Origin: an uncultured Candidatus Saccharibacteria bacterium
GTDB lineage: Bacteria; Patescibacteriota; Minisyncoccia; UBA6257; 2-01-FULL-56-20
DNA length: 31,774 bases
Direction: 5' to 3'
Assembly (NCBI GenBank): GCA_964467765.1
Contig: CAYXSS010000010.1
Location: forward strand, 1-31,774
The position numbers were made by a program, and so were the translations under genes. Shown one piece after another: positions 1,046 through 31,414 of this stretch (positions within the stretch are counted from its first letter, which is position 1; each line of letters opens with the position of its first letter). The notes under the pieces were generated by a model, which was not told the origin of the DNA, made no database searches, and saw only the letters and a program-made list of their open reading frames with translations.

Positions 1046-1279
1046 ATGTCCGGAGCCAACAAAAAAATCGTTTTACAAATCGTTGCCTTGATAATTGTCC
1101 TGATCCTCGGCGCAATTTATTTCTTTAAAAAACCGGAGCCAAAAACCGGTTCCGCTGGAAAAGAAAGACTGCAAACTCCGCAGCCAGCAATATCGCCGTC
1201 GACCACTTCTCCGCTATTCAATGGCCCGGTCGGCACGCCGCACGTCATCGGACCGAAAGCCAACCCGCCGAACTATTAA
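1046..1279 (+). CDS. Small membrane-anchored protein, 77 aa: N-terminal TM helix and a Pro/Ser/Thr-rich tail.
   Basis: ATG at 1046. Strongly hydrophobic segment IVLQIVALIIVLILGAIYFF followed by a low-complexity tail. Confidence 0.35.
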   Translation: MSGANKKIVLQIVALIIVLILGAIYFFKKPEPKTGSAGKERLQTPQPAISPSTTSPLFNGPVGTPHVIGPKANPPNY

Positions 1280-1411
1280 GTTTTCCAAAAAGCGCAGCGG
1301 CATCTTTTTTGACTAATTTCATCCAAAAACTTAATATAAAAACCGGGGCAATAAGCCCTTTTTTAATTGGTAAAATAAAAGTAACTAAAGCCTGGTTTGC
1401 TTCGTTTTCTT

Positions 1412-1945: not shown

Positions 1946-1946
1946 C

Positions 1947-2411
1947 ATGGACCTCTTCGGGAATCTTAAACAACTTAAAAATATCGAAGCAGGCCGCGAA
2001 TTCACAAAAAAGTCTCGTGGCCTGGTTTTGGCTTCTTTAAATATCGAACCCAGTGCCAATAAAAAAGTTTTTGGAACGCTTTTGAGCGTTTTCGACGTAG
2101 TAGCGTCTCTCGCGCTCGCCGGTTTTCTTATCGTACTTATTTTAGGCGGTGTTTCTTCTTTCAAAGCTTTCCAGCCGCTGCAGATAACGGCGATAGATCC
2201 GGCAAACATAAAAGCCGAAGCCCAAGCCGTGGATTTACAAATCCAACTTGCCAATTTGAATTACAAAGACTCCTCCGTACGCTCCTCCGGCGAATCGACT
2301 GTGCCATCTGGCGCCAAAAAACAGTCGAATACCAAAAACACTAGCAACGAAAAAGTCGCAAATTCAGACCAGCTTTCCATCGACGAGGCCTTACGATTGC
2401 TTTCCGAATAA
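1947..2411 (+). CDS. Single-pass membrane protein immediately downstream of the ECF sigma gene; candidate anti-sigma factor.
   Basis: Starts 1 nt after the sigma stop codon. Has a TM helix (VASLALAGFLIVLILGGVSSF). The anti-sigma assignment rests on gene position only. Confidence 0.45.
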   Translation: MDLFGNLKQLKNIEAGREFTKKSRGLVLASLNIEPSANKKVFGTLLSVFDVVASLALAGFLIVLILGGVSSFKAFQPLQITAIDPANIKAEAQAVDLQIQLANLNYKDSSVRSSGESTVPSGAKKQSNTKNTSNEKVANSDQLSIDEALRLLSE

Positions 2412-2438
2412 AAAAGCAGGACTTTAAAAAATTTGCAT

Positions 2439-2465
2439 TACCGCCAAACGGCGGTATTCTATTTT
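2439..2465 (+). terminator. Rho-independent terminator: TACCGCC-AAAC-GGCGGTA followed by a T-run.
   Basis: 7-bp GC-rich stem plus TTCTATTTTTAT, directly after the sigma/anti-sigma pair. Confidence 0.6.
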
Positions 2466-2466
2466 T

Positions 2467-3222
2467 ATGAATAAATACTTATCTGCTGCCATAATCTCCG
2501 CTATTTTTTTTGGATTCTTTCCAAAAACCTCCGTTCTTGCCGAAAGCGGCTGCAAACTCACGCAGTCAGCTGTAGGGGAACTGGGGAAAATACAAGAAAA
2601 TGCGTCTCTCGACGATTCATATAAAATCAGAGAGGAGCTGCGCATAAGAAAAGCCCTTTTAAACAATGTCGTTGATTGCGCCGCGCAGGAACTGTTGGCT
2701 CTCAAATATAAATTCGAAAATGCCGGCAACGGAAACGAAGAAGTTAGAACGCTGCGTTCCCAATTCTCCCCCTGGTTTTTCGATACGCTCAATTATTATT
2801 CTGCTGAAAAAGCGAGAGTCGACAATCTTGGCATCCAGGGCACGAAAGAGTTTGCTAGAAATTTTCGCCTCTGGCGTGAAGGCAATTTCCAACCGATCTC
2901 AAAATTAATCGCAAATTTCGTAATTTGGTCACAAAACCAAGAGTTAATGAGTGTCGCCAAAATCCGTCTTGAACAAATCAAAAGATCAATAGAATTTTTC
3001 GGACTGACTTTCAATGATAATGTAAGAACCGCTCTTCAAGATGCTGACGGCAGCCTGCAGAAAACATTGGCCTTTAACAGCGCCGCCAAGGAAATTCTAA
3101 GAACCTATGGCTCAGCTGACGACGCCGCCTCTGAAATAAATTTATCCCTGGAAAATCTTTCTCTGACTTATAAAAATATTTTCGAACTGGTGCAAAGAAT
3201 AGCAGAGGAGATTAAAAAATAA
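2467..3222 (+). CDS. Secreted hypothetical protein, 251 aa, with a signal peptide.
   Basis: N-terminus MNKYLSAAIISAIFFGFFPKTSVLAESG looks like a signal peptide. No known domain recognised. Confidence 0.55.
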   Translation: MNKYLSAAIISAIFFGFFPKTSVLAESGCKLTQSAVGELGKIQENASLDDSYKIREELRIRKALLNNVVDCAAQELLALKYKFENAGNGNEEVRTLRSQFSPWFFDTLNYYSAEKARVDNLGIQGTKEFARNFRLWREGNFQPISKLIANFVIWSQNQELMSVAKIRLEQIKRSIEFFGLTFNDNVRTALQDADGSLQKTLAFNSAAKEILRTYGSADDAASEINLSLENLSLTYKNIFELVQRIAEEIKK

Positions 3223-6100: not shown

Positions 6101-9100
6101 TTATGTTCCCTGAGCGTAGCTGACAGACTGGATGTTGATCGGCACGACGTAAGACTCAATGTTCACGCTGTTGGCAGCGGAATCAAGCGAGTCGAGCCAA
6201 CTCACATCGGCAACTGCAGCAATCTGCGCAGTCAGAGTCTGTGAAACACCGGACTGGGCGGCAGCCGTACCGTTAGTGGAATCAGCCCTCAAGCGGAAGC
6301 TCTTGGAAGAGCCGCCGGAAAGCTGGTAGTTCGCAAGGTTGAAGGTAAGGGTGTTGGAGCTAGATGCCGTAGCAAAGTAGCTTGAGCCGTTAGCCGTGTC
6401 ATACAGCTTAACTTTACAGCTGGAACAGGTCGTGTAGTCAGCCAAACTGGTGTAGTAGAAGCCAGCGCCGGTCGACGGAGCGGAACCGCTGAAGGTGAGC
6501 TTCACGGAACCGATCTGTACGCCACCGGCCGCGTCCGCGGCAAAGGTGATGTCGGCCAAATCATCAACCGAAGTCTTTGACCTGCCCGAGGTGTTGCCCA
6601 AGGCAGACGCAGTTACGGTAAGTTTTGACCTCAAAACCGTTGCGGTGTTCGCTGTGGCCGCTAAGCCAGAGACCGCAGAAGAAGCGTTCGACGTCGAACC
6701 GAGTGCGACAACAACTTGGTAGCTGTTGCCCAAAGCGTTCGTCGAGGAACCGATCGTCGCAATCTTGAAGACGTGAGTCGTGTTGTCCGTAGCGCCGGAT
6801 GAGGCGTAGGAAGACACGTCGCCTTTCAAAGTAAGCGAGATCGAACCGGCGCGAGGAACCACTACAGGCGAAGCAAAGCTGAACTTGTAGTAGTAACCGT
6901 CACCCGGGTTGGATGTCGTTGTGTTCTGCGTCGCTGCGCCGCCGGAAGCCAAGAGGCTGCCCGCGGACGAGTATACGCCGACGTTGCCGAACGCCGATTT
7001 CACGTTGCTTGCGCTCGAAACCTGATCGAAGACATAGAGATCGGTGATCTTAATGTCTTCCACGTTGGAAGTTTCGGTAAACCTGAAGATTGCCAAAGAG
7101 TTACCTGGAGAACCCATAACAAGCTGTTTGGCAGCCGGGGTGCCCGAGTCGATGGCAATCGTTACGGTTGACTGGCCAGCGAAGGATACAGATTGGCCGT
7201 TAACCGAGCCGCAAGAAATGGACGTTAGGGAAACGGCGCCGGATGCGGAGCATCCTGAAAGGCTCGTTGCCGGAACCACGCTACCGGAAGCTGACGAAAG
7301 CGAGTCGGCGTAGACGTCGACATACTTTGTCTGCCCGGCAGGAATAGTAAACGGCGAGCCGGAGAAGGAATAGGTCGTGCCGGAAGCAACAGTACCTTGC
7401 GTGGTACCGAATTGCACTCCGCCAACCAATACCTTGGCGTTCGCCCAAACGTTGCCGTTAACGATAAAGCTCACGTTGTTAACCGTCACGCCTTCAGCCG
7501 TAGAAGCCGTAAAGGCGTAAGAGCCAACCTTAAGACCAGTCGAGTTCTTGGCCAAGGTCTGGTCGCCTATAGAGGTGTTCTTGCCAACCGTGAGGCTCGC
7601 GGAAGCGAGCGTCAAGGCCGCGCCGGAAACCGACGCCGAAGAAGCAGTCTGGGAAGACGTCAAACCTTGCAAGTTGCTGGTGTTGCCGGTCAATTTGCCC
7701 TGGAGAGTGGTGAAGTTTGCCGTCGACTGAACGTCGCCGCGCAAAGACAAAACTCTCGTGGTGTTCGCCGGAACAACATAGTTGATCGGCGAAGAGCTGT
7801 TGCCGTAACAGTTCGTGTAGCTGTAGTTCGTGCTCGTTGTGTTGGAGTACGCGTTATCCGTACACGTCGCGCTCGTGGAGAGCGTGTTGATGGTCGTGCC
7901 AATCTGATTGCCGGCGTCGTCGACCAGCGCCAAGTTTTTCAAGGCGTCGTCAACGGTGTTGTTGTTGAAGCCGGTGAATGTCAGGCTGACGCCCAACCAT
8001 TTGACTTTTATGGCCTCGCCAGCGGCGTAAACCGTAAACTTGGCCATAGTAATACCGGACTGACCTTTGGCTAAGTTGCCAGTCGGAGTGTCGGTGGCCT
8101 GGGAAACCGTAACGGTTCCGGCCTGAATCGACACTTTCGTACCGGTGTTGGAAGCAGCCGCGATCGGCACGTTGTACTGGGAATCAACCGCCAAAATGTC
8201 GTACGAGTTCAAGATCTCGAACTGGAAGTCATAGCTCGGAGATCCCATGATATCGGCGAAAAGCTGGATGTTGTTTGAACCGGTGTTCAAAACTCCGGGA
8301 TTTGCCGAAATATCGAAGTAAGCATCGCCGCTAGCGGAAACTTGGGCCAGCGATGAGCCGACCTGGTTGCCGTTAACTTTCAAGATGACATTTCTGATGT
8401 CGCTCTTGTTGGCCGAGCCGATAACCCTAAACTTGACCGAGTTCAGCCAGACTTTGCTGTTGGTAGCGGTAAAGTTCCAGGCGCCAACCAAGTTGTTGGT
8501 CGTTCCGGCCGTAACCTGCGTTCCAATTGAGGAAGAGGCGACGGTCAGGGTGGCGAGCGACGGGTTGGAAACCGTGGTCACCGTAAAGACATTTCCGTTG
8601 AACGGAAACGCTCCGGAGGCGACAACGGAATTGCCCGAGGCGTCAACCGCCGTAACATCGGAGGCCGAAGACAAGGCAAAGCTCACTGAATTTCCTGCGG
8701 AAAGGCTCGTTGCCGGGTCAATCGAGAATCTGAATTCTCTTGTCTGACCGGCAGCAATGCTCAAATTCAAGCCGGAGAATACGATCACTCCGCCAGAAAT
8801 AGAGTTGTATTGCGAAAGAACCTGTCCGCTCTCCGTGACATAGGCTCCGGAAATGGAGCTGTCGGAGAGAACTCCAACCTTACGCAGGTTGATTTGGTTG
8901 ATTGTTACACCGGACGCAGTACCGGCTGTGAAATTCACGGCTAAAACCCTGACTCTCGCAGCAGCAGAACTGGTACCGGAAATCAACGCTCCCGCGGAAG
9001 GATTGTCCGCAGCCAAGCTAACCTGCAAGCCGGAAGCCGGAGCAGGAAGCTGGGGAGCGCCACCGCCGGACGGAGCCGGAGAAGGAGCTGCAGCCATCGC

Positions 9101-9499
9101 CGCAAAAGCAGCGCGGCTCTTTGGACCAAAATAACCGGTAGCATTGACGCCAGCGGCTGCTTGCCACTTGGCAACGGCCGCTTTGGTTAAAGAACCGAAG
9201 TAGCCCGTCGGAGCAACGGCAAGATAGCCTTTGCCCTGCAATACGCCTTGAAGGCATTTGACATCGTCTCCCTTAGATCCCACGGTGAGGTCGCGAGAAA
9301 AACTACAGGAGGCAGATACACCGCCTTTTGCGGAAAGCTGGGATTGCAACTGTTGAATCTGAGCCAAGAGCGCAGAAATTTGCGCCTGAAGATCAGAAAC
9401 AGACTGCGCCTGTGCAACCGGAATTAAGGCGCCGGACATGGAAAGCAATGTTGTCCCAGCCAGCGCCAAAGAAACAAATTTTGTTCTTAGTGTGTGCAT
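6101..9499 (-). CDS. Giant secreted or cell-surface protein, 1132 aa: signal peptide, coiled-coil, peptidoglycan-binding-like domain, then long S/T/G/A/N/V-rich repeated modules.
   Basis: N-terminal signal peptide (…LLSMSGALIPVAQAQ). Heptad-like segment LQAQISALLAQIQQLQSQL. PG_binding_1-like motif (KGDDVKCLQGVLQGKGYL…GYFGSLTKAAVAKWQ, with a partial second copy). About 900 aa of low-complexity sequence with recurring module-like segments. Confidence 0.8.
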   Translation of the reverse strand: MHTLRTKFVSLALAGTTLLSMSGALIPVAQAQSVSDLQAQISALLAQIQQLQSQLSAKGGVSASCSFSRDLTVGSKGDDVKCLQGVLQGKGYLAVAPTGYFGSLTKAAVAKWQAAAGVNATGYFGPKSRAAFAAMAAAPSPAPSGGGAPQLPAPASGLQVSLAADNPSAGALISGTSSAAARVRVLAVNFTAGTASGVTINQINLRKVGVLSDSSISGAYVTESGQVLSQYNSISGGVIVFSGLNLSIAAGQTREFRFSIDPATSLSAGNSVSFALSSASDVTAVDASGNSVVASGAFPFNGNVFTVTTVSNPSLATLTVASSSIGTQVTAGTTNNLVGAWNFTATNSKVWLNSVKFRVIGSANKSDIRNVILKVNGNQVGSSLAQVSASGDAYFDISANPGVLNTGSNNIQLFADIMGSPSYDFQFEILNSYDILAVDSQYNVPIAAASNTGTKVSIQAGTVTVSQATDTPTGNLAKGQSGITMAKFTVYAAGEAIKVKWLGVSLTFTGFNNNTVDDALKNLALVDDAGNQIGTTINTLSTSATCTDNAYSNTTSTNYSYTNCYGNSSSPINYVVPANTTRVLSLRGDVQSTANFTTLQGKLTGNTSNLQGLTSSQTASSASVSGAALTLASASLTVGKNTSIGDQTLAKNSTGLKVGSYAFTASTAEGVTVNNVSFIVNGNVWANAKVLVGGVQFGTTQGTVASGTTYSFSGSPFTIPAGQTKYVDVYADSLSSASGSVVPATSLSGCSASGAVSLTSISCGSVNGQSVSFAGQSTVTIAIDSGTPAAKQLVMGSPGNSLAIFRFTETSNVEDIKITDLYVFDQVSSASNVKSAFGNVGVYSSAGSLLASGGAATQNTTTSNPGDGYYYKFSFASPVVVPRAGSISLTLKGDVSSYASSGATDNTTHVFKIATIGSSTNALGNSYQVVVALGSTSNASSAVSGLAATANTATVLRSKLTVTASALGNTSGRSKTSVDDLADITFAADAAGGVQIGSVKLTFSGSAPSTGAGFYYTSLADYTTCSSCKVKLYDTANGSSYFATASSSNTLTFNLANYQLSGGSSKSFRLRADSTNGTAAAQSGVSQTLTAQIAAVADVSWLDSLDSAANSVNIESYVVPINIQSVSYAQGT

Positions 9500-16437: not shown

Positions 16438-17967
16438 TTATTTGTTTTTTTGAAGAAGAACCCCGGGTATGGCCGAGTTTCGGTAGAAGTAGAAATTAGA
16501 GAAGGCCATAAACAAGAACAGGTTAATATACATCGGCAAAACTTCGAAAATCGCCGCATTTTGAACCAGATATCCTACGGCAAGCCCAAGTATCAATCCT
16601 CTTATGATTTTTTCTTTGGCTTCCGCGCTGGATGATCCGTTTTCTTGACCCGCATTAGGAGTAAGATCTTTTTTTCTAAATGACCAGAAAAGAGCTACAT
16701 ACATTCCTATATAAGAAAGGAATCCCAGGGCTCCTGATTCGGCAAGATAGTCGAAATAAACGCTGTGTGCGCGATCAAACCAGGTCTCGGTATTCGCGCC
16801 GGGCACGAAATGGCGCTTGTCAAAATATTTGTCGAAAACAGCACTGAAATTCTCCGGACCCCAGCCAAGAATCGGCCGCTCCAAAAATCCTTTGAAAGCC
16901 GATCCCCATGTCCAAGTTCTCGTTTCAAGCTCGTGCGTCTTCAAGGAAATATTGAAAATTCTTCCGCCGGGTAAACTCCTTACAAAATCGGTGTTGCTGA
17001 AATAAATTAAATTCGCTCCCAATAAAACCACGATGGCAAGCGTGATAAGAATTTTCTTGCGCCAAGCGGCAAACGCAACCGCCGAATAAACCAGGAATGC
17101 CACGATGGAAAAAGCCAATCCGACGAACGTAGCCCGCGTTTGACTAAGAAATAAAAAGAGAAGGAAAAAAAGCGCCGAAGCTGCAAAAAATACCTTCTTG
17201 CGAATATTCTCCGAGCGAACGCAAAGATATAAAACATAAAAGATGGCGAAGAGAAGGTAGGGTGCAACATAAGCCGGATTTCCCAAAGAACCCTGAAAGC
17301 GAGCTGTCGAAAGTTTTTGCCACCAACTTAAATTGAGATAGGTTTCCCTGTCACTTGGTCCGGAAAATTGATAGGGGCTGATGAAATTGTTGCCGAGAAA
17401 GAAATTCGCGGCAATGCCGTAGGCAACCATCAAAAACGCGGCAACAGCTGCAACTTTGAAAATTCTTCTCCAATCTTCTTCTTTTTTAAAAAGCAAAACC
17501 GAAAGGAGAAATAACCCGTAATAATGGAGTATTTGGAACGCGCCCTCCCCGCGTTCGAAGTTGGACCAAAAAGCAGCAGCCGGATCGTAAGCGAAAAACG
17601 AAGCCAAAAGAAAAGCCAAAACGAAGGCGGAGGCCGCGAGAAAAATCGGTTTCTTCCACACCTCTTTTATTTCCGCCGCCGCCTCTCCTTCTTTGGCTTC
17701 GAATGCCCACCAAAGCAAATAAAAAACCGCGGCCAACTCTATGGAAATTCTGAAAAAATAGTCTTTCCCGCCGATAAAAGGGAAAAACATCGAGGTCATT
17801 ACGACGGCAACGCTAAAAAGAGACGTACCGAGGAAAAATTTCGCGGCGCGGCGGAAGGTTCCTCGTCCGAACAAAATCCAGCCGATAATACCGGCCACAA
17901 GAACAATAAAAAAGTAATACCAATTATCCAGCAGACTGGCGTAAGAATCAAATAATTGAGTAAACAT
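16438..17967 (-). CDS. Wzy_C-domain (O-antigen ligase/O-OTase-like) polytopic membrane protein, a paralog of 3614-5971 without the TPR fusion.
   Basis: 509 aa. Shares conserved blocks with the 785-aa protein (SQTRATFVGLAFSIVAFLVY; PILGWGPENFSAVFDKYFD). Confidence 0.75.
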   Translation of the reverse strand: MFTQLFDSYASLLDNWYYFFIVLVAGIIGWILFGRGTFRRAAKFFLGTSLFSVAVVMTSMFFPFIGGKDYFFRISIELAAVFYLLWWAFEAKEGEAAAEIKEVWKKPIFLAASAFVLAFLLASFFAYDPAAAFWSNFERGEGAFQILHYYGLFLLSVLLFKKEEDWRRIFKVAAVAAFLMVAYGIAANFFLGNNFISPYQFSGPSDRETYLNLSWWQKLSTARFQGSLGNPAYVAPYLLFAIFYVLYLCVRSENIRKKVFFAASALFFLLFLFLSQTRATFVGLAFSIVAFLVYSAVAFAAWRKKILITLAIVVLLGANLIYFSNTDFVRSLPGGRIFNISLKTHELETRTWTWGSAFKGFLERPILGWGPENFSAVFDKYFDKRHFVPGANTETWFDRAHSVYFDYLAESGALGFLSYIGMYVALFWSFRKKDLTPNAGQENGSSSAEAKEKIIRGLILGLAVGYLVQNAAIFEVLPMYINLFLFMAFSNFYFYRNSAIPGVLLQKNK

Positions 17968-21581: not shown

Positions 21582-22316
21582 ATGAAATTTACGATCTACC
21601 CTTCATCTCCGAAACGGGCGGCAATCGCCCATCGCGCAAGTTGCTTTGTTTTTGGCGCCGGGAGTTTTATTTCTTTATTATTTGTATCATTATTTGCATC
21701 CTATTCCGATTCATATGGCAACCATCATGCAATACGTAATATCTTTGTAACTTCTTTTCTTCTTAGTATTTTCGGCGCCCTTATCGCAGGACTAGCAAGC
21801 CTCTTCAACCTTGAGTCCTTTTTGGCACTACACTCATCCGACATCTTCCGCTGGCGGCGCCTCACTGGCAAAAAAATGGATTCCTTCCCGGAGAACTCCG
21901 TGGAGTGTCTGGCCTACAGAAACGATTACCTGCTTCCGGAGCTTGAAAGAAGAGCTAAAAATGCGAGTTTTTGGTTTAAAGAGCGCGACAGGGCACAAAA
22001 CCGATTGGACCATCTATTGAACAATAAGCCGCAATACACGATTGAAACGAAAATTACGGATAAAATCGATATTGAAGAATTCCGCAAAAAATATGCCGAC
22101 GAAATTAAGAGAAAAGAAAAAGACGTAAATATGTGCATGTGCATAGTAAATGATTTTTCGGCAAATGCGAAGCGGGCGCAAAAGAAATTTCTCGCCTGGT
22201 GGGACATGGTAAAAACACTCGGAGAAATTTATGTAATAGACATGCTGCCTGACGATCCTGAAACGGAAAAAATGTATGATGACCCGAACAAATACCGCCT
22301 CGATCTGGAAAAATAA
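21582..22316 (+). CDS. Hypothetical membrane protein, 244 aa, first of a tandem paralog pair.
   Basis: Two or three N-terminal TM helices, then a charged domain. The segment GKKMDSFPENSVECLAYRNDYLLPELERRAKNA aligns with GKSLDFFPQDANKFAAHKKIYLLKELEKRKREA in the next gene. Confidence 0.55.
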   Translation: MKFTIYPSSPKRAAIAHRASCFVFGAGSFISLLFVSLFASYSDSYGNHHAIRNIFVTSFLLSIFGALIAGLASLFNLESFLALHSSDIFRWRRLTGKKMDSFPENSVECLAYRNDYLLPELERRAKNASFWFKERDRAQNRLDHLLNNKPQYTIETKITDKIDIEEFRKKYADEIKRKEKDVNMCMCIVNDFSANAKRAQKKFLAWWDMVKTLGEIYVIDMLPDDPETEKMYDDPNKYRLDLEK

Positions 22317-22367: not shown

Positions 22368-22396
22368 TAAATTGCAACGGCTGCGCAAATGCGCGG
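22368..22396 (+). terminator. Rho-independent terminator: CGGCTGCGC-AAAT-GCGCGGCCG followed by TTTTTTGTT.
   Basis: 9-bp stem (one G·U pair) plus a T-run, between the two paralogs. Confidence 0.65.
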
Positions 22397-22445
22397 CCGT
22401 TTTTTGTTACAATCAAACCAGAAGACTCGAAAACGCGAGGTGAAA

Positions 22446-22937
22446 ATGCGTCTTAAAGCCGTCCTTTGGGCGCACAGGATTTTCGTTGCCTGTTTCTGCG
22501 CGTCACTCCTTGCGGTAATCGCCGCCATACTTTTTTCTCCGATAAAAATTTTCGCGTTTAATCTTGCTCTATCCTTCCTTGCGCTCGGGGCAAGTTTTGC
22601 CGGTGTCTTAATCTCCGAAAAACGCGGCGCCTGGATCGCCAAAGAATGGATTAAAGTAACCGGAAAATCTCTCGACTTCTTCCCGCAAGATGCAAATAAA
22701 TTCGCCGCCCACAAAAAAATTTATTTGCTTAAAGAACTGGAGAAGCGCAAAAGAGAAGCGGAATGTGCCGCGAAAAAACCGCAAAATCCCGATTCCGCTG
22801 CAGGCAAAAAATTTTTAAGCGGCGCCTCGGATGCCGAGATGGCGCGTAAGCGGTACGAAGAGTGGCTTGCCCTCGTCGAAGACCTGGAAAAATATTTTTC
22901 TGGAAACAAAAAAACCTCGCTATTGGCGAGGTTTTAA
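22446..22937 (+). CDS. Hypothetical membrane protein, paralog of 21582-22316.
   Basis: ATG at 22446 preceded by GAGGTG. TM N-terminus plus a homologous charged domain. Confidence 0.5.
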   Translation: MRLKAVLWAHRIFVACFCASLLAVIAAILFSPIKIFAFNLALSFLALGASFAGVLISEKRGAWIAKEWIKVTGKSLDFFPQDANKFAAHKKIYLLKELEKRKREAECAAKKPQNPDSAAGKKFLSGASDAEMARKRYEEWLALVEDLEKYFSGNKKTSLLARF

Positions 22938-22950
22938 GCTTTTTTTATTT
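22914..22950 (+). terminator. Terminator hairpin AACCTCGC-TATTG-GCGAGGTT plus a T-run, overlapping the stop codon.
   Basis: 8-bp stem followed by TTAAGCTTTTTTTATTTT. Confidence 0.5.
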
Positions 22951-23056
22951 TCCGATCAATCCGAAACTTTCCGTTTTTGAGAAGCTATCGGTTGTAATAA
23001 TTTATATTTCCAGCCAGCGGAGGTTTCCTTTTTACGAGAAGCTCTCGGAGCGCTCT

Positions 23057-23065
23057 TGTTATAAT
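23057..23065 (+). promoter_or_regulatory. Extended -10 element (TGTTATAAT), 7 nt upstream of the holin-like gene ATG.
   Basis: Seen directly. Its closeness to the ATG implies a leaderless or very short-leader mRNA. Confidence 0.4.
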
Positions 23066-23071
23066 CAAAGC

Positions 23072-23425
23072 ATGAGGTTCCTGGCTAAATTGGTTCTTAT
23101 TGTCGGCGCCAACACCGCCGCCATTTGGGCCGCAGGAAAATATATTGACGGGTTTCACATTGCGGGCAATCTCTATGAGATCGCTTCCATTGCGGTCATA
23201 CTCATAGCGCTCAATTTTTTCCTCAAACCCCTGCTTAAAATGGTTCTGGGGCCGATTATAGTGCTTACTCTCGGACTCGGACTGATTTTGGTAAATGCCA
23301 TCGTGCTTTACGTACTCGACCTGTTCTCCAAAAACCTCGCGATCGACGGCGTCCGTCCTCTTTTTTATGCGACAATTTTGATCTCGGCAGTAAATTTCGT
23401 GGTACACCTCGCAACAAAAAAATAA
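23072..23425 (+). CDS. Holin-family-4/DUF360 (YvlD-like) four-helix small membrane protein.
   Basis: 117 aa. Pattern MRFLAKLVLIVGANTAAIWAAGKYIDGFHI…GPIIVLTLGLGLILVNAIVLYVLD typical of the 'phage holin family 4'/mycobacterial 4TM family. Start taken at the internal ATG 23072. Confidence 0.6.
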   Translation: MRFLAKLVLIVGANTAAIWAAGKYIDGFHIAGNLYEIASIAVILIALNFFLKPLLKMVLGPIIVLTLGLGLILVNAIVLYVLDLFSKNLAIDGVRPLFYATILISAVNFVVHLATKK

Positions 23426-23426
23426 T

Positions 23427-24719
23427 ATGAAAGGGTTTTCTAAAAGACAGCTTGTTATGATCGGGGTCGGTATTTTCGCGCTTCTTGTCGCCGGCATCAT
23501 CGTAGCTTTCAACCTGCGCCAAGGCATCGGTCCGCAAGTAACGCTGACGGTTTGGGGAACAGACGACCCAAGCGTCTGGGACGGAACAATCCAAGGATAT
23601 AAACTTGTACGCCGCAACGCGGAAGTTGACTACAGAAAAATAGATGCGGGAAATTACAGATCCGAGCTCCTCGACGCTCTGGCCTCCGGCAAAGGTCCGG
23701 ATATTTTCTTTATCGGCAACCGCGATCTTTGGGCCGACAAAGAAAAAATCGCCACCTCGAGCCCGTCCCAATTCGGCCTCTCGGCCTTGCGCCAGTTTTT
23801 TCCAACGGTTGTCGAGCAAGATTTCACGATTGACGGACAAGTTTTTGCCTTGCCGCTCTATATCGACACCATGGCCATGCTTGTGAACCGCGACCTTTTC
23901 GACCAGGCGGGCATAGCGACAATTCCAACAAGCTGGGAGGAGTTTCTTCGCGACATTCCCAAACTCCGCAGTATCAGTTCCGAAAACCAAATTTTAAGGG
24001 CGGCCGCGGCTATCGGAGGGTCGGAGGCTACGGTTGACGCAGGCACGGATCTCTTGCAGCTACTTTTAATGCAAAACGGCGCAAAAATGAACGACGAAAG
24101 CAAAGCTTCTGCCAGTTTCGCTTCGGAATCGGGATATGCCGGCTTCCGAGCCTTCGATTTCTATCTGCAATTCGCCAATGCCGGCTCGCCTTATTTCACC
24201 TGGAACGACGGGCAGCGGAATTCCGTTGAAGCTTTCGCCGGCGGTAAAATTGCGGCGATTTTCGACTATGCATCCGCGCTTGCTAGAATTAAAAAGATCG
24301 GTCCGTTCCTGAATGTCCGCGCAGCGCAGATGCTCCAGCCGCTGGGTGCAAGCCAAGCAGTGAATTTCGCCCGTTACGAAGGACTTGCCGTCTCACGGCA
24401 AAGCAGAATTCCGGGGTGGGCATGGGACTTCGTGACTTTTGCCGCGACAGACCAGTCCGCCGCCAAATCATATTCCGATGCCACCTCCCGCCCGCCAGCG
24501 CTTCTTTCTTTAATATCGAGAAAATCCGGCGATCCAGATCTCGAAGTTTTCGCGGGGCAGGCTCTCACCGCACGCTCGTGGGTCGTACCGTCCGATGCCG
24601 GCGTGCGCGACATTCTAAACCGCGCCATCCAAGACACGCTCGGCGGCAAAACCGATTCGCCGACGGCTCTAAGCCAAGCCGAGGGACAAATCAATCAATT
24701 GTTTATAAAAAATAGGTGA
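23427..24719 (+). CDS. Extracellular solute-binding protein (ABC family-1-like), orphan: no permease or ATPase genes adjacent.
   Basis: 430 aa. N-terminal TM anchor, then TLTVWGTDDPSVWDGTIQGYK… with SBP-like length and composition. Start 2 nt after the holin-like stop; its end overlaps pilin P1. Confidence 0.7.
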   Translation: MKGFSKRQLVMIGVGIFALLVAGIIVAFNLRQGIGPQVTLTVWGTDDPSVWDGTIQGYKLVRRNAEVDYRKIDAGNYRSELLDALASGKGPDIFFIGNRDLWADKEKIATSSPSQFGLSALRQFFPTVVEQDFTIDGQVFALPLYIDTMAMLVNRDLFDQAGIATIPTSWEEFLRDIPKLRSISSENQILRAAAAIGGSEATVDAGTDLLQLLLMQNGAKMNDESKASASFASESGYAGFRAFDFYLQFANAGSPYFTWNDGQRNSVEAFAGGKIAAIFDYASALARIKKIGPFLNVRAAQMLQPLGASQAVNFARYEGLAVSRQSRIPGWAWDFVTFAATDQSAAKSYSDATSRPPALLSLISRKSGDPDLEVFAGQALTARSWVVPSDAGVRDILNRAIQDTLGGKTDSPTALSQAEGQINQLFIKNR

Positions 24720-25258
24720 GGAAATTGAACTCAAGATTTATGACACAAGATTCAGGATTCAAGGTTATTATTTTGATTTTAGCTCTGGCGGCGGGAGTTT
24801 TATTGATTTTGCCGCAAAAAAGTTTCGCATTAACAACCACTGGTTGTGATGTCGGCGAAGCCACCAGCATCCCTTTTTGGGGACCGTTTGTTTCTTGCAG
24901 TGGCCCGCAATACATCAACTGCGACTCTTCTGGTAAGTGTCAGGAAAACCGCTGCGCCTGCAAACCGTTCGACCAGGGCGGCAAGGCACAGTTAATACAG
25001 ACTTTCATCAACGTCGTCTATTTCGGCATGACCGTCGCCCTTTTCGTCCTTGCGCCCATCCTTTTCGCCTGGGGAGGAATACTTATCATGATCGGGGCGT
25101 CGAGCATCGAAGAAATCGGCGGCAAAAAAGCGAGCATCAGCAAAGGCAGGTCCGTCATCACCGGCACCTTCGTCGGCGTTTTAATCGTCCTTGTCGCCTA
25201 CGTGCTCGTGAAAACTTTCATAAACGTCCTCGGCATCGGCGGCGTGGGAGGGTTTTAG
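24716..25258 (+). CDS. T4SS-type (TrbC/VirB2-like) pilin paralog P1 with an N-terminal Cys-rich insert.
   Basis: 180 aa. Signal/TM segment, 7 Cys in the following ~45 aa, then the two-helix pilin core (FINVVYFGMTVALFVLAPILFAWGGILIMIGASS … TGTFVGVLIVLVAYVLVKTFINVLG). 4-nt overlap with the SBP gene. Confidence 0.6.
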   Translation: MRKLNSRFMTQDSGFKVIILILALAAGVLLILPQKSFALTTTGCDVGEATSIPFWGPFVSCSGPQYINCDSSGKCQENRCACKPFDQGGKAQLIQTFINVVYFGMTVALFVLAPILFAWGGILIMIGASSIEEIGGKKASISKGRSVITGTFVGVLIVLVAYVLVKTFINVLGIGGVGGF

Positions 25259-25377
25259 AAAATTTCATCACAAGACAAATGACAACGGCCACAAACCAAC
25301 GACGCGCAAGTGTTTTGCGGGAACTTGCGGAGCGCGGCGGCGCGAGCGTGAGGAATTTTTCAGTAAGAAAAATATCC

Positions 25378-26238
25378 GTGCCCCGAAAAATATTTGCGCG
25401 TCGCGGTATATTCATAAAACTTTTACCGGCAACGATTCTTTTCTCTCTGCCGGCGCTCGCCCTGGCGCAACAGCCGGAAAGCCCCGTCTCCTACGTGCAA
25501 AGTTTTTATAATTTCGCCTTGGCCATCGGCGGCATTTTGGCTTTCGGCGCGATAGTCTACGGAGGCGTAATTTATACTTTCGCCGCGGGAAATCCCTCAA
25601 AGCAAGATGAAGGAAAAAAATGGATCTGGGGCGCGCTTTTGGGCCTCCTCCTTCTTGCCGGAGCATATCTGGTTCTCTACACAATCAACCCCAAGCTTGT
25701 GGAACTTTCTCTTACTGGACTGCCTGGTCTTCCACCGGGTGGGGGCGGCGGAACGGGACAAGATATAAAACTTACGAATTGCACATCGAAGGCGCCTTCC
25801 TACGAAACGGGGTATGCAAATACGTCCGGCATGGTAAGTCCCGGTGTGGCCGCTATCGAAAGCTGTGTCAGAAATAATTCCAAATTTAGCGGCATCGGCA
25901 ACATTACAACTTGGCAGGGCGAACACACCTGTAATGCCGTATCCGGTTCCTCAAATTACGGCTCGGAGTCTTGTCATTTTGGGGGAAAATTCTGCGGGGA
26001 CGGATCTCACGCCATCGATTTCGGCAAAAATGGCCTGCCTGCCGGCGCCACTCTTAAGGATGTATACGACTATGCCAGTAACAAAAATGGCCAGTGCGGC
26101 CCGCATTCGGTACAATGCTTTTACGAAATAGGAGATTACAGACTGCCCGATCAAAGCAATCCGGGTAACGCCGATCACGTTCACTGCAATGTTGATACGG
26201 ACGGCACCAATGAACCGCAAGGATGCGGCTGTAAGTGA
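25378..26238 (+). CDS. T4SS-type pilin paralog P2 with a ~190-aa C-terminal Cys/His-rich extracellular domain. Start uncertain: GTG 25378, or ATG 25279 giving a long leader.
   Basis: Signal peptide KLLPATILFSLPALALAQQ. Pilin core FYNFALAIGGILAFGAIVYGGVIYTFAAGNPSKQDEGKKWIWGALLGLLLLAGAYLVLYTINPKLV. C-terminal domain with more than 12 Cys, ending GCGCK. Confidence 0.65.
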   Translation: MPRKIFARRGIFIKLLPATILFSLPALALAQQPESPVSYVQSFYNFALAIGGILAFGAIVYGGVIYTFAAGNPSKQDEGKKWIWGALLGLLLLAGAYLVLYTINPKLVELSLTGLPGLPPGGGGGTGQDIKLTNCTSKAPSYETGYANTSGMVSPGVAAIESCVRNNSKFSGIGNITTWQGEHTCNAVSGSSNYGSESCHFGGKFCGDGSHAIDFGKNGLPAGATLKDVYDYASNKNGQCGPHSVQCFYEIGDYRLPDQSNPGNADHVHCNVDTDGTNEPQGCGCK

Positions 26239-26284
26239 CGGCATTTGCAAAATCATTTGGCAAATAGTTCAATTATAAAAACGT

Positions 26285-26656
26285 ATGAGAAACAAATTAT
26301 TTTCAATTTTGTCGTTCGCGTTTGCGTTTCCGTTCGCAAGTATTGAACGGGCCTTGGCGCAAGGACAAGCCGGCGACGCGGGCAGCGTGCCCAAGCTTAC
26401 CAATCCCCTCTGCGGCGGCAATCCCAATTGCACCTTGGCCGACATAGCCGACAAAATCATCACGTTTCTTTTTGACGTTTCCCTTCCCATTGTTTCCATT
26501 ATGGTTTTAATCGGCGGTTTTCAAATGCTCACGGCCGGCGGCAACGCGGAAAAATTCGGCGCGGGCAAAAAAACGGTTGCCTACGCGGCGATCGGCTTTG
26601 CCGTTATAAGCGTCGCTCGCGGCATCACTTCCATTATCAAAAGTATCACCGGCTAA
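26285..26656 (+). CDS. T4SS-type pilin paralog P3.
   Basis: 123 aa. Signal peptide, short Cys pair, then core SLPIVSIMVLIGGFQMLTAGGNAEKFGAGKKTVAYAAIGFAVISVARGITSII. Confidence 0.7.
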   Translation: MRNKLFSILSFAFAFPFASIERALAQGQAGDAGSVPKLTNPLCGGNPNCTLADIADKIITFLFDVSLPIVSIMVLIGGFQMLTAGGNAEKFGAGKKTVAYAAIGFAVISVARGITSIIKSITG

Positions 26657-26676
26657 ATAATGAAACCGTTTTTTCT

Positions 26677-26705
26677 TGAAGAAAAATGGGGGTTTTGCTA
26701 TAATA
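26677..26705 (+). promoter_or_regulatory. Promoter TTGAAG, 17-nt spacer, extended TGCTATAAT, for pilin P4.
   Basis: Seen directly, about 55 nt upstream of the ATG at 26764. Confidence 0.5.
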
Positions 26706-26763
26706 AAACGTAAGATTCAAGCAATCGAAAAGGTCGAGGTTTTTAGAAATAGGTTTTCGATAA

Positions 26764-27138
26764 ATGAAACAAGCACTAAAAATCGCGGCGGCCTCCGGCT
26801 CAATCGCTCTTGTGTCCCTTGTCCCCTTCTTTGCTTTCGCGCAGGTTAACATCAATCCTGTTCCGCCTCCGCCATACCAAGGACCATCCGGCCTGCAGCA
26901 GGTAAGCGGATGGCTGAACTTATTGCGGGCAATTCTTACATGGGTGGCCATCGCTTTCTGGATTTTCGCAACAATCTTCATCATCCTCGCCGCTTTCAGC
27001 TACCTTACGGCCGCGGGAGATCCGGAAAAGGTAAAAGGCGCCTCGAGCAAGCTGCTTTATGCCGTCATCGCCATCGCCATCGGGCTTTTGGCCTACGGCA
27101 TTCCGGCTATCGTCCAGAGCTTTTTACAAAGGCAGTAA
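26764..27138 (+). CDS. T4SS-type pilin paralog P4.
   Basis: 124 aa. Signal peptide, Pro-rich linker, then core WIAIAFWIFATIFIILAAFSYLTAAGDPEKVKGASSKLLYAVIAIAIGLLAYGIPAIVQSF. Closely similar to P5. Confidence 0.7.
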   Translation: MKQALKIAAASGSIALVSLVPFFAFAQVNINPVPPPPYQGPSGLQQVSGWLNLLRAILTWVAIAFWIFATIFIILAAFSYLTAAGDPEKVKGASSKLLYAVIAIAIGLLAYGIPAIVQSFLQRQ

Positions 27139-27166
27139 TAACTTGTTGGCTGCCGTTGGTCTCTTA

Positions 27167-27200
27167 CCCCGCCCCATACTGGGGCGGGGTTGCCGTTTGT
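27167..27200 (+). terminator. Terminator: CCCCGCCCC-ATACT-GGGGCGGGG followed by a T-rich tract.
   Basis: 9-bp all-GC stem plus TTGCCGTTTGTT, after P4. The extended -10 TGTTATAAT of P5 (27198-27206) follows immediately. Confidence 0.65.
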
Positions 27201-27206
27201 TATAAT
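27198..27206 (+). promoter_or_regulatory. Extended -10 element (TGTTATAAT) for pilin P5.
   Basis: Seen directly, 43 nt upstream of the ATG at 27249. Confidence 0.45.
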
Positions 27207-27248
27207 GATTTGTACATACTAAAAGGTCTCAAAAAACACACGGCCAAA

Positions 27249-27569
27249 ATGAAAAAAATTAAAATTTCTTTGACATCGCTTCTGCTGCCCGTGTCCGTGT
27301 TGGCGCAAAACAACCAATCTCCGATAAATTCCGCGAAGGATATTATCGAACTTTTTAAAAAATTTCTTTACTGGATTGCGACGGCGTTTTGGATTTGGGC
27401 CGTCATCGCCATAATCTACGCCGGGTTTCTGTATCTCACCGCGGCGGGAGATTCCGAAAAACTGGACAAGGCCAAAAAACAGCTTCTTTATTCCGTCATC
27501 GCCGTAGCGATAGGACTCGTGGCTTACGGAGTTCCGGCGATTGTAAACAGTATTTTGAACAGGCAATAA
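27249..27569 (+). CDS. T4SS-type pilin paralog P5.
   Basis: 106 aa. Start taken at the internal ATG (MKKIKISLTSLLLPVSVLAQ). Core WIATAFWIWAVIAIIYAGFLYLTAAGDSEKLDKAKKQLLYSVIAVAIGLVAYGVPAIVNSI. Confidence 0.7.
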   Translation: MKKIKISLTSLLLPVSVLAQNNQSPINSAKDIIELFKKFLYWIATAFWIWAVIAIIYAGFLYLTAAGDSEKLDKAKKQLLYSVIAVAIGLVAYGVPAIVNSILNRQ

Positions 27570-27600
27570 AAAAGAGTCCGGACGAAAAGGAAATGAAAGT

Positions 27601-27633
27601 CCCCACACCGATTCGATGTGGGGATTCTGTTTC
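27601..27633. terminator. Bidirectional terminator hairpin CCCCACA-N9-TGTGGGG between converging genes.
   Basis: 7-bp stem with T-rich sequence on both sides. Sits between the P5 end and the end of the minus-strand gene 27632-28141. Confidence 0.5.
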
Positions 27634-28141
27634 AGTTGAGGTAGATGGTTATGGGAATGTTTCTACCGGAATTGTTTTTGAAACGCATTCCGGTAAGAAA
27701 CCTGTTTCCGTCCGCAGGCCTGTACGTCCGCAAAAGCGGATTGAGCTCAATCGGATCCTCTTTTGTGCCGTCTGAATAGGCGAATTGAATGTCGATCTTC
27801 TCTTTTCCTTCGGCAAGAAATCTGTTTGCGCCGACAGGCCTCGCCTGCCAATCTGTCCAACAGTCGCCGGACGAGATGACAAGCTCCACCTTATTTGCGT
27901 TCGGCAGAATGCTGTAACCGTTGCCGCAGCCGATTGTCGGAGCCGAAGAACTGGACTGAATGTGCCCGCCGATCCACTTCTTGGCCGCGGCAATCCGATC
28001 GTTCTTCATCGCCCAAAAAATCGCGCCGGCAAGCAAAGCGGTGAAAAACAGGAGTTTGCTTATACTGCCCACATTTTTCGAGATCCTATCGGCAGTCTGC
28101 TCGGAAATTACCGGCTCCGTCTTCTTCACTCCGATATTCAC
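27632..28141 (-). CDS. Membrane-anchored secreted protein, 169 aa, co-operonic with the SPFH protein (4-nt overlap); possible NfeD-like partner.
   Basis: N-terminal TM helix LLFFTALLAGAIFWA plus a beta-rich C-terminal domain. The NfeD-like call rests only on architecture and adjacency to an SPFH gene. Confidence 0.45.
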   Translation of the reverse strand: MNIGVKKTEPVISEQTADRISKNVGSISKLLFFTALLAGAIFWAMKNDRIAAAKKWIGGHIQSSSSAPTIGCGNGYSILPNANKVELVISSGDCWTDWQARPVGANRFLAEGKEKIDIQFAYSDGTKEDPIELNPLLRTYRPADGNRFLTGMRFKNNSGRNIPITIYLN

Positions 28142-29394: not shown

Positions 29395-29476
29395 GGGCGG
29401 GTGGCGGAATTGGCATACGCGCAGCGCTTAGAACGCTGTCCCGAAAGGGTTGTGGGTTCAAATCCCACCCCGCCCA
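29395..29476 (+). tRNA. tRNA-Leu, anticodon UAG, type II with a long variable arm; CCA not encoded.
   Basis: Folded by hand. Acceptor GGGCGGG/CCCGCCC; 3-bp D-stem; anticodon stem CAGCG/CGCTG with loop CTTAGAA; variable hairpin CCC-GAAA-GGG; T-arm GTGGG-TTCAAAT-CCCAC; discriminator A. Confidence 0.8.
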
Positions 29477-29619
29477 CGAAAATGCGGGATTTGAACGCCG
29501 GAGCAAAGATTTTCAGCAGAAAATTTTTGCGAGGCGGTGCCCAGACCAAACGCGAGCGACGGCGAGTATTTGAGTCGCGGGCAAATCCCACCCCGCCCAC
29601 GAAAATGCGGGATTTGAAC
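29477..29619 (+). repeat. tRNA-3'-associated element, copy 1. Layout: 20-nt spacer; ~86-nt core (29497-29582) containing a perfect 12-bp hairpin GCAAAGATTTTC-AGCA-GAAAATTTTTGC; then a 37-nt direct duplicate of the tRNA-Leu 3' end plus spacer (29583-29619 duplicates 29460-29496).
   Basis: Seen directly. The core recurs reverse-complemented at 31226-31310 with only 3 substitutions over ~85 nt. Confidence 0.75.
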
Positions 29620-30921: not shown

Positions 30922-31005
30922 ATTTCCCTCTTTTTGGTTTAATTACCTGCTTTCAAAATACCCCCCCCGATGCGTCTGTCAAGCACGGTACGTGGCCATA
31001 CAAGG

Positions 31006-31079
31006 CAAGTGTTTTTCGGAGACTTGCGGAGCGCAACAGCGCGAGTATAAGAAATTTTTCAGTAAAAAAACTATGCCCA
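31006..31079 (+). repeat. Orphan copy, about 75% identical, of the segment at 25307-25383 (the pilin P2 5' leader region).
   Basis: Hand alignment: CAAGTGTTTT(G/T)CGG(GA/AG)ACTTGCGGAGCGC…GCGCGAG…AATTTTTCAGTAA…. The reading frame is preserved for 27 codons with conservative substitutions, then the similarity ends. Confidence 0.6.
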
Positions 31080-31203: not shown

Positions 31204-31337
31204 TTGGTGCGGGCGGAGGGAATCGCCCGCGACTCAAACGCTCGCCGTCGCTCGCATTTGGTCTGGGCACCGCCTCGCAAAAATTTTCTGCTGAAAATCT
31301 TTGCTCCGGCGTTCGATTCCAGTTCTTTTGGAAAAGC
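31204..31337 (-). repeat. tRNA-3'-associated element, copy 2, on the minus strand. Layout: 27-nt spacer; ~85-nt core (31226-31310, reverse-complement of the copy-1 core); then a 22-24-nt direct duplicate of the tRNA-Lys 3' end including CCA (31204-31225 duplicates 31338-31359).
   Basis: Seen directly. Same order relative to its tRNA as copy 1: tRNA, spacer, core, tRNA-3' duplicate. Confidence 0.75.
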
Positions 31338-31338
31338 T

Positions 31339-31414
31339 TGGTGCGGGCGGAGGGAATCGAACCCCCAACTTACGGGTTAAAGGCCCGTTACTCTACCGAT
31401 TGAGTTACACCCGC
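31339..31414 (-). tRNA. tRNA-Lys, anticodon UUU, CCA encoded.
   Basis: Hand fold: acceptor GCGGGTG/CGCCCGC (one G·U pair); D-arm ACTC-AATCGGTA-GAGT; anticodon stem ACGGG/CCCGT with loop CCTTTAA (C at position 33 is atypical); T-arm GGGGG-TTCGATT-CCCTC; discriminator A; CCA. Confidence 0.7.

Follow-up and report, generated by a model that had tools for sequence, protein, structure and literature searches.

A position-ordered array of VirB2-like pilin genes from an uncultured Saccharibacteria bacterium, including a pilin fused to a probable LAS-type peptidase domain

Here we describe a tandem array of five small genes, P1 to P5, carried by contig CAYXSS010000010.1 (assembly GCA_964467765.1) of an uncultured Candidatus Saccharibacteria bacterium, within an analysed stretch of 31,774 nucleotides, hereafter the 31.8-kb window. 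The genes occupy positions 24716-27569 as adjacent, co-oriented open reading frames (ORFs) of the plus strand, their coordinates checked against the DNA, and they probably encode a differentiated set of pilins of the type IV secretion system (T4SS) kind, one of which, P2, bears a probable peptidase domain at its C-terminus. At its N-terminus each protein has a hydrophobic stretch, terminated by an Ala-x-Ala-like site, and it continues with two helix-length hydrophobic segments with a short Lys-rich loop between them, in agreement with an earlier sequence-only reading of the window, which had described five consecutive genes sharing a signal peptide and a two-hydrophobic-helix core. Signal segments were judged by a hydropathy scan combined with reading of sequence and alignment: in P1, P2 and P4 the scan returned three segments, the N-terminal one and two of helix length, whereas for P3 and P5 it returned the helix pair, and their N-terminal segments were read from sequence and alignment. 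The inter-helix loops, also read from the sequence, are AAGNPSKQDEGKK, AGGNAEKFGAGKK, AAGDPEKVKG and AAGDSEKLDKAKK, and the loop of P1 has a 7-residue insertion relative to the P2-P5 cores. All motifs singled out in the earlier reading were located in the translations, with YLTAAGD in P4 and P5, LTAGGN in P3, and SHAID...DHVHC in P2, which also has FAAGNP.

P1, a divergent VirB2-like pilin, ends at 25258 and has three in-frame candidate starts (GTG 24716, TTG 24725 and ATG 24740), the first of which overlaps the stop codon of the upstream solute-binding protein (SBP) gene. Between its signal segment and helix 1 lies a Cys-rich insert, as claimed before, with six Cys instead of the seven originally counted. 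P2 (25378-26238, 286 aa) consists of a pilin core joined by a Pro/Gly linker to a Cys/His-rich C-terminal domain. Public gene calls place the P2 start at ATG 25280, yielding a protein of 319 aa. A start at GTG 25378 is more likely, since it gives a textbook signal peptide (MPRKIFARRGIFIKLLPATILFSLPALALA, with cleavage before QQ), P2 orthologues begin directly with signal peptides as well, and the initial 33 codons of the annotated gene, which are probably untranslated, cross a 70-nt repeat. This repeat, at 25306-25375 of the plus strand between P1 and the probable P2 start, recurs at 31005-31074; the copies are 83% identical, and their alignment shows two conserved stems (GCAAGT/ACTTGC and GCGC/GCGC) with differing loops. 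The copy near P2 folds better than shuffled sequences (z = -3.7), the other does not (z = +0.3), and Rfam gave no match for the repeat. P3 (26285-26656) is a VirB2-like pilin with a two-Cys loop ahead of helix 1, and P4 (26764-27138) and P5 (27249-27569) are Cys-free VirB2-like pilins and, respectively, the first and second candidate for a major subunit. The description of P4 and P5 as near-duplicates has to be given up, as they are only 48-52% identical; all other paralog pairs in the window share at most 32%.

P1-P3 follow the SBP gene with overlapping or short spacers. For P4 and P5, candidate sites for the separate promoters that had been proposed were located, and so was the intervening hairpin. 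Upstream of P4, a promoter-like TTGAAG-17-TATAAT with a TG before the -10 hexamer (26676-26704, plus strand), recognised by consensus match, agrees with the consensus at 10 of 12 positions and ranks first in the region scanned. Between P4 and P5 lies a terminator-like GC-rich hairpin with an 11-bp stem and a subsequent U-rich tract (27166-27190, plus strand); the surrounding 77-nt stretch (27139-27215) folds at -29.4 kcal/mol (z = -3.0), and none of 200 shuffled sequences folded as well. An extended -10 element, TGTTATAAT (TGnTATAAT; 27198-27206, plus strand), was read from the sequence 43 nt upstream of the P5 start, and the promoter scan reported no -35 match for it. From these promoter-like sites and the hairpin between them, P4 and P5 look independently and strongly expressed. 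The plus-strand unit is closed by a further hairpin, found by the terminator scan at 27600-27624 between the array end and the convergent gene 27632-28141 (minus strand), which is terminator-like on the minus strand and folds weakly better than shuffled sequences (z = -1.7).

Membership in the pilin family was judged against the Pfam gathering cut-offs of 26.6 bits for PF18895 (T4SS_pilin, which covers VirB2-like pilins from Patescibacteria and monoderms) and 27.9 bits for PF04956 (TrbC/VirB2). P2, P3, P4 and P5 pass the former with 35.9, 34.8, 27.8 and 33.8 bits, matches that are not due to chance. P1 has no direct Pfam pilin match; its four closest homologues all match PF18895 (best E 7.7e-9), and hhalign of the P1-family profile with the P2-P5 core profile gave 97% probability (E 1.1e-10), so that P1 can be classed as a divergent member of the PF18895-type pilins. 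With PF04956, P2 and P5 remain below the cut-off (16.5 and 20.2 bits), and P1, P3 and P4 do not match. P5 also scores 36.2 bits with the NCBIfam model Mbov_0395, a pilin-like conjugal transfer protein of a Mycoplasma integrative and conjugative element (ICE), under the cut-off of 40. The assignment to TrbC/VirB2-type pilins thus holds by way of PF18895, directly for P2-P5 and through profiles for P1, and does not hold for the PF04956 model itself. Taken together, sequence comparison supports the view that P1-P5 are T4SS-type (VirB2-like, PF18895) pilin paralogs.

In VirB2-type pilins, as well as in TraA, the hairpin that remains after removal of the signal peptide has both ends outside and its basic loop inside. 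By this analogy the P2 C-terminal domain, the N-terminal Cys segment of P1 and the two-Cys loop of P3 are predicted to be extracytoplasmic. All 18 Cys of P1-P5 fall into predicted extracytoplasmic segments, none into a helix or an inter-helix loop, a pattern that speaks for exposed modules stabilised by disulfides and against frame artefacts. The positions of the Cys bear out the earlier statement that two of the five pilins, P1 and P2, have Cys-rich extracytoplasmic additions. The signal peptide, two-helix hairpin and short basic loop are shared with VirB2, TrbC, TraA and the archaeal conjugation pilin (PDB 8dfu), whose termini are both predicted to face outward, such that a C-terminal addition would be surface-exposed. 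Two differences are that the Pfam TrbC model stays subthreshold here and that filament assembly of P1-P5 is putative.

Related loci were found on three contigs of GCA_040960095.1 (L003-L005), on three Joint Genome Institute (JGI) contigs and on seven short contigs (including L017). Contigs nearly identical to that of the window occur in the runs SRR5161805 and SRR5161795. In L003-L005 the order is GyrA, SBP_bac_8, a P1-like protein of 256-317 aa, a P2-like protein and three pilins; on the JGI contigs TyrRS is followed by P2-, P3-, P4- and P5-like genes; and on the short contigs, where sequence continues, a P2-like gene is followed by P3-like and then P4-like genes. The P2-P3-P4(-P5) order is retained in all 11 related loci with downstream sequence. 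In an all-against-all BLAST comparison, P1, P2 and P3 have single best counterparts at the same position (62-67, 134-154 and 82-89 bits, respectively), and P4 and P5 map to one subfamily; behind P2, every related locus examined contains a one-to-one orthologue of P3. Between loci, orthologues share 28-51% identity, as opposed to at most 32% for the paralogs of the window apart from P4/P5. The array can therefore be regarded as an old ordered set of four classes and not as a recent amplification. This speaks against the notion of a modular pilus with variable tips put forward in the sequence-only reading: across distant loci the P1, P2 and P3 classes are fixed, position-specific orthologues and not interchangeable variants. 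The Cys insert of P1 is conserved among P1 homologues. The P1-class orthologues of L003 (9043-9990), L004 (9037-9990) and L005 (9234-10004) have, in addition, a C-terminal Cys-rich extension of 90-150 aa without a Pfam match, which is absent from the P1 of the window and present in P0021, a P1 homologue of 278 aa. Another locus, L008, encodes, on the strand opposite its P2-type cassette, a PilB/GspE-type ATPase (T2SSE 409 bits plus an MshEN domain; 1246-2916, minus strand), which lies 1.8 kb upstream with TyrRS in between; it belongs to type IV pilus/type II secretion machinery, not to a T4SS.

Evolutionary rates were obtained from one closely related pair of loci, L007 (2781-4877) and L008 (4678-6851). 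Their TyrRS proteins are 98% identical in amino acids, with a synonymous divergence (dS) of 0.09 and a ratio of nonsynonymous to synonymous divergence (dN/dS) of 0.09. For the whole P2-like gene the corresponding values are 86%, 0.36 and 0.20, and for its C-terminal domain 88%, 0.49 and 0.12; they are 85%, 0.28 and 0.28 for the P3-like, 57%, 0.75 and 0.42 for the P4-like, and 75%, 0.38 and 0.35 for the P5-like gene. Within this pair, dS of the cassette is 3-8 times that of the adjacent TyrRS, change is fastest in the P4 class, and constraint is strongest on the P2 domain. The cassette evolves or recombines far faster than the neighbouring TyrRS, which suggests recombination or strong diversifying pressure, and the rates fit exposed bulk subunits under diversifying pressure combined with a P2 domain that has a conserved job. 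In their N-terminal part, the P2 orthologues of L007 and L008 differ by a 30-residue indel rich in Asn and Pro.

The extra region of P2 spans about 160 aa with 10 Cys and 6 His, so that the Cys/His-rich region reported earlier is real and its size and Cys count (about 190 aa, more than 12 Cys) were overestimated; the domain itself measures about 150 aa. We know of no VirB2-type pilin with a folded C-terminal domain of 150 aa. The preceding linker of about 30 Pro/Gly-rich residues, for which the predicted local distance difference test (pLDDT) in the structure model is below 50, would let the domain swing from its membrane or filament anchor. The domain has no match in Pfam, NCBIfam or PDB sequences, and a word-index homologue search with the domain alone returned none. 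When 1.84 billion cluster representatives were scanned exhaustively with HMMER, 16 other proteins were recovered, comprising 14 true relatives and two repeat artefacts (P0006 and P0013, large Ig-repeat and InlB-repeat proteins that we rejected since repeats inflated their scores). The true relatives are 165-373 aa long, and the complete ones are composed of a signal peptide, a PF18895 core, an 'INPxL' junction, a variable linker and a P2-type domain. A profile search added nine further relatives of the domain, eight of them with a recorded PF18895 match, and a metagenome scan twelve additional P2-type loci; two motif patterns found none in 185,579 GTDB representative genomes. By these searches the domain family appears rare, and its complete members are all predicted pilin-core fusions.

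Conservation was read over 23 sequences that are 29-42% identical to P2, in the residue numbering of the 286-aa protein. T178, G181, H183, S198-C-H-F-G-G203, C206, G209, H211, A212 and D214 are invariant, as are H267, H269, N271, C283 and C285 in the C-terminal part; E250 and three more Cys are nearly invariant. The family therefore has five invariant His, one invariant Asp and an invariant HxH (H267, H269). As to the spacing of His and Asp, the invariant pair H211/D214 corresponds to H-x2-D, and H200 with the nearly invariant D208 to H-x7-D.

An AlphaFold2 model of the domain alone, built from the 23-sequence alignment, reached a pLDDT of 74 and a predicted template modelling score (pTM) of 0.75. 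Its structural matches, obtained by one method only, belong solely to the LAS/M15-type zinc peptidase fold, Hedgehog included. The top match is the C-terminal MT3 domain of pneumococcal VldE (score 7.6; 22% identity over 82 residues), followed by a Streptomyces Zn DD-peptidase (6.3), Hedgehog N-domains (5.6-5.8), LysB4 (5.5), the T5 L-Ala-D-Glu peptidase (5.4), Ply500 (5.3), the RB49 peptidase (5.0), and MepA, VanXY, VanY, VanX and LdcB (4.1-4.7). VldE, an experimentally proven L,D-endopeptidase of the LAS group, binds zinc through H301, D308 and H375 and has an HxH motif as well as a cleft rich in His (PMC11667670). Given this coherent list of matches and the invariant His, Asp and HxH, we regard the P2 domain as a probable zinc peptidoglycan peptidase. 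For the LAS-type fold as such, we see slightly favourable odds; that the domain is catalytic is a more tentative proposition. The earlier suggestion of a disulfide-rich, possibly metal-binding tip or adhesin module is refined accordingly: with structural matches to LAS/M15 zinc peptidases only, and by this single method, a wall-cutting enzyme appears likelier than a pure adhesin.

When compared with the LAS group (clan MD: VldE MT3, PDB 9FLH; 1LBU; the T5 enzyme, Ply500, LysB4, VanX/VanY, MepA and Hedgehog), P2 has candidate counterparts of the zinc-ligand motifs in its HxH near the C-terminus and its invariant His and Asp on a central strand, together with further conserved acidic and His residues and a predicted extracytoplasmic location. 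Unlike these proteins, it has five probable disulfides, and its SCHFGG and C-terminal CGCN motifs have no counterpart in LAS families. The tape measure protein of phage TM4, which contains an MT3 motif, offers a conceptual parallel, namely a peptidoglycan-cutting module within a structural protein of a wall-crossing tube, and its MT3 class is, via VldE, the top structural match; yet the carrier there is a tape measure and not a pilin. VirB1, PrgK, TcpG and TrsG perform the role proposed for P2, local opening of peptidoglycan for a T4SS structure, but they are separate proteins with SLT, CHAP or lysozyme domains, whereas P2 is LAS-like, fused to a pilin and devoid of those Pfam domains.

The explanation we favour, with a probability of roughly one half, is that the array encodes a fixed, differentiated set of PF18895 pilins for a Patescibacterial T4SS apparatus, in which P2 tethers a probable LAS-type wall peptidase. 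P4 and P5, which are Cys-free, have their own promoter-like sites and hairpin and belong to the fastest-evolving class, would provide the bulk subunits, and P1, P2 and P3 would be specialised minor subunits whose extra disulfide-capable segments face outward. P2 would be exported by Sec and anchored by its two pilin helices with the C-terminus outside, from where the domain, on its tether of about 30 residues, may cut the peptide stems of peptidoglycan. Its target could be the cell's own wall, which would let the structure through and so do what VirB1 does in other systems, or, where the two cells touch, the wall of the host. Since most Patescibacteria genomes with VirB2-like genes lack a VirB1 homologue (PMC12102498), P2 could supply a wall-opening activity.

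A number of results weigh against this explanation. The confidence of the P2 model is moderate, with two low-confidence loops, and a Foldseek search of the same model against the PDB returned nothing (best E 0.58). At E up to 10, Pfam gave no match to a peptidase family for any of the 23 family members, and with PHROGs the members gave scattered single-member matches (best E 0.13), among them two to endolysin families (E 0.32 and 0.56). A PDB profile search found no LAS protein, its two matches (E 0.5 and 4.3) being unrelated proteins, and hhalign gave a probability of 0.1% both for a Ply500-type M15 profile of 17 non-redundant viral sequences and for the TM4 tape measure protein. Likewise, tblastn of the domain against phages revealed no link to a peptidase; a Brevundimonas phage protein (90% of the domain covered, E = 2) was judged a chance match. 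The invariant H-x2-D departs from the H-x6-D of M15 and the H-x3-D of M23, and the residue aligned by spacing with R294 of VldE, the transition-state Arg, is Lys in P2 and missing in some members. As regards the apparatus, the Pfam scan, which covered window ORFs of at least 110 aa and those flanking the array, found no homologue of VirB4, VirD4, VirB6 or VirB11 nor any other T4SS machinery gene in the window, just as the sequence-only reading had noted that secretion ATPase and channel genes are not nearby. Such genes are also absent from the precomputed Pfam annotation of the 10-kb flanks of the arrays in L003-L005, and neither there nor in the window do pilin genes adjoin virB4, virB6, virB3/prgI or virD4. 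Moreover, no pilus has been observed on any Patescibacterium (PMC12857230). The absence of machinery genes is nonetheless ordinary, because about 40% of pilin-bearing Patescibacteria assemblies have no pilin gene near virB4 (PMC12102498).

Alternatively, the P2 domain might be a non-catalytic, disulfide-stabilised and possibly metal-binding adhesin on a pilus tip, with an LAS-like fold that binds, as in Hedgehog ligands. The non-canonical His-Asp spacing, the unconserved Arg, the 10 Cys and the missing sequence-level link to any peptidase family would all suit such a protein; however, five invariant His, an Asp, an HxH and a near-invariant Glu at 29-42% identity are more typical of a metal-dependent active site, the top match VldE is itself an active endopeptidase with many His lining its cleft (PMC11667670), and adhesive surfaces usually vary, at odds with a dN/dS of 0.12. 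We consider this explanation rather unlikely. That the Cys-rich regions are merely untranslated frame or annotation artefacts is improbable in the extreme. The annotated P2 N-terminus from ATG 25280 does cross a non-coding-looking repeat, but the P2 C-terminal domain shows protein-level conservation across more than 20 independent sequences (profile E down to about 1e-40) and is under purifying selection, and the P1 insert is conserved in homologues; hence these regions are genuine, as had been assumed, and only the first 33 annotated codons of P2 are doubtful.

A more radical departure would be that P1-P5 form no filament at all and are simply two-helix membrane anchors, P2 being a tethered autolysin for growth or division of the cell's own wall and the array being unrelated to secretion. 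Consistent with this, VirB4, VirB6 and VirD4 are missing from the window and from 10 kb around the related arrays, the neighbours are housekeeping or envelope genes (SBP, SPFH, GyrA, TyrRS), and a pilus has never been seen in the phylum (PMC12857230). Yet the family is homologous to VirB2/TrbC-type pilins and to pilin-like proteins of Mycoplasma ICEs, a VirB2-like gene adjoins virB4 in 1,135 of 1,948 assemblies and an array in the T4SS cluster of Southlakia is essential (PMC12102498, PMC10633639), and four pilin classes kept in one order speak for a set that assembles together, leaving the no-filament explanation unlikely as well. The literature's own proposal for VirB2 arrays, interchangeable pilin variants serving antigenic or host-range variation, would account for the high divergence among paralogs, which matches that of other arrays (mean 25% identity, PMC12102498), and for the 57% and 75% identity of the P4 and P5 classes between L007 and L008, set against 98% for TyrRS, with raised dS that could reflect either recombination or diversifying pressure. 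But P1, P2 and P3 are position-specific orthologues with their own distinctive additions across loci whose proteins share just 30-50% identity, as expected of subunits with different jobs, and variation of this kind applies at most to the P4/P5 pair; as an account of the array it is quite improbable. Going beyond the explanation we favour, one may imagine a feeding or penetration device in which a P4/P5 filament primed by P1-P3 contacts the host, the P2 zinc peptidase opens the host wall and the SBP captures released or conducted material. This is a long shot; if true, type IV secretion systems would have their first pilin-enzyme fusion, and there would be a direct molecular handle on how epibionts breach and tap their hosts.

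The array as such is not new. A survey that applied PF18895 and PF04956 to 3,035 Patescibacteria genomes identified 1,948 assemblies with VirB2-like genes, 1,135 of them having a pilin gene near virB4, and described 441 arrays of 2-11 pilin genes with a mean within-array identity of 25% and a maximum of 54% (Quinonero-Coronel et al., PMC12102498). With so many such arrays published, there is nothing unusual in one that has five genes and lies apart from virB4; the values of the window (at most 32%, and 48-52% for P4/P5) match that range. In Ca. Southlakia epibionticum, a pilin array within the T4SS cluster is essential (PMC10633639), and a 2025 review considers the possible pilus the distinctive feature of Patescibacteria systems (PMC12857230). 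Diversified pilin arrays, attributed in the sequence-only reading to episymbionts of the Candidate Phyla Radiation, are hence a documented trait of this group (PMC12102498, PMC10633639). Both the surveyed arrays and the cluster of strain ML1 (SEML1_0006-0019) share with the window the PF18895 family and tandem divergent paralogs; the Southlakia array, in contrast to ours, sits inside the T4SS cluster. In the portions of the published array descriptions accessible to us, there is no mention of an enzyme-like pilin fusion, position-specific class orthology or SBP linkage. These three features appear to be new, as does the much faster divergence of the pilin genes relative to a flanking housekeeping gene; the function proposed for the fusion comes from one structural method.

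The interest of the locus lies in the dependence of Patescibacteria on other bacteria and in the fact that the single species tested cannot do without its T4SS genes and pilin arrays. A pilin with its own probable wall peptidase, always the first of a four-class cassette, would give a testable component for the crossing of two walls without a recognisable VirB1, and the fixed class order argues for sets of subunits with distinct jobs instead of pools of antigenic variants. Should the enzyme assignment fail, the locus would still stand for a small Cys/His-rich domain family, unannotated and confined to pilin fusions, which would be of modest interest.

Directly upstream of the array, the gene at 23427-24719 (plus strand) encodes a membrane-anchored SBP of the sugar type, which matches SBP_bac_8 and SBP_bac_1 with 91.7 and 72.3 bits, above the Pfam cut-offs, and whose top matches by sequence in the PDB are proteins that bind sugars or oligosaccharides. 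Neither the window nor the related loci contain cognate permease or ATPase genes, and no close relative was found in GTDB representative genomes. Orthologues lie directly upstream of the pilin array in L003-L005 (39-41% identity) and directly upstream of P2 in L017 (52%). The SBP gene is thus a recurrent but not obligatory partner, present at five loci counting the window, with TyrRS in its place in three. Before it, at 23072-23425 (plus strand), lies a gene for a small holin-like membrane protein (PF04020, Phage_holin_4_2, 57 bits), whose start was taken as Met71 of ORF 22862-23425 from where the Pfam match begins. We rejected it as part of the unit, as it is absent from every related locus, where GyrA or TyrRS lies upstream. 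Of the two genes that had been linked with the array, only the SBP gene therefore retains that connection (through L003, L004, L005 and L017); the holin-like gene is not conserved there. On the other side, the downstream gene 27632-28141 has no similarity to its positional counterpart in L003.

Elsewhere in the window, neighbours include an ECF-type (extracytoplasmic function) sigma factor, two Wzy_C proteins, a 1132-aa PG_binding_1 protein, GalU-like, ClpB, RNase Y and iPGM proteins, an SPFH protein and four tRNAs, in addition to the holin-like and SBP_bac_8 proteins. Together with the PF18895 array, this gene content suggests a Patescibacterial origin of the DNA. The 1132-aa protein (6101-9499, minus strand) is a Ser/Thr/Ala-rich secreted protein with an N-terminal PG_binding_1 domain, a candidate surface-layer or adhesin protein, and its gene lies in the most GC-rich part of the window (55% compared with about 44-50% elsewhere). 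The two Wzy_C (O-antigen ligase-like) membrane proteins (3614-5971 and 16438-17967, both minus strand), one of which has C-terminal TPR repeats, share a 78-nt stretch of 77% identity (4906-4983 and 16824-16901). Two small adjacent apparent paralogs with N-terminal membrane segments and no Pfam assignment (21582-22316 and 22389-22937, plus strand) have a similar central stretch (...W.R/KLTGKK/SMD/LD.FP...YLL.ELE.R...) and a strong hairpin between them (22376-22401). Finally, in the regions 29395-29619 (plus strand) and 31204-31414 (minus strand), one and the same element of about 85 nt follows tRNA-Leu(TAG) and tRNA-Lys(TTT), respectively; its arms (29487-29603 and 31204-31320) are 90% complementary as an inverted pair. 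After the element comes a second copy of the respective tRNA 3' end, which for tRNA-Leu forms a perfect 38-nt direct repeat (29459-29496 and 29582-29619); this looks like a small element that inserted at the 3' ends of tRNAs and duplicated its target, or else like a trailer common to both.

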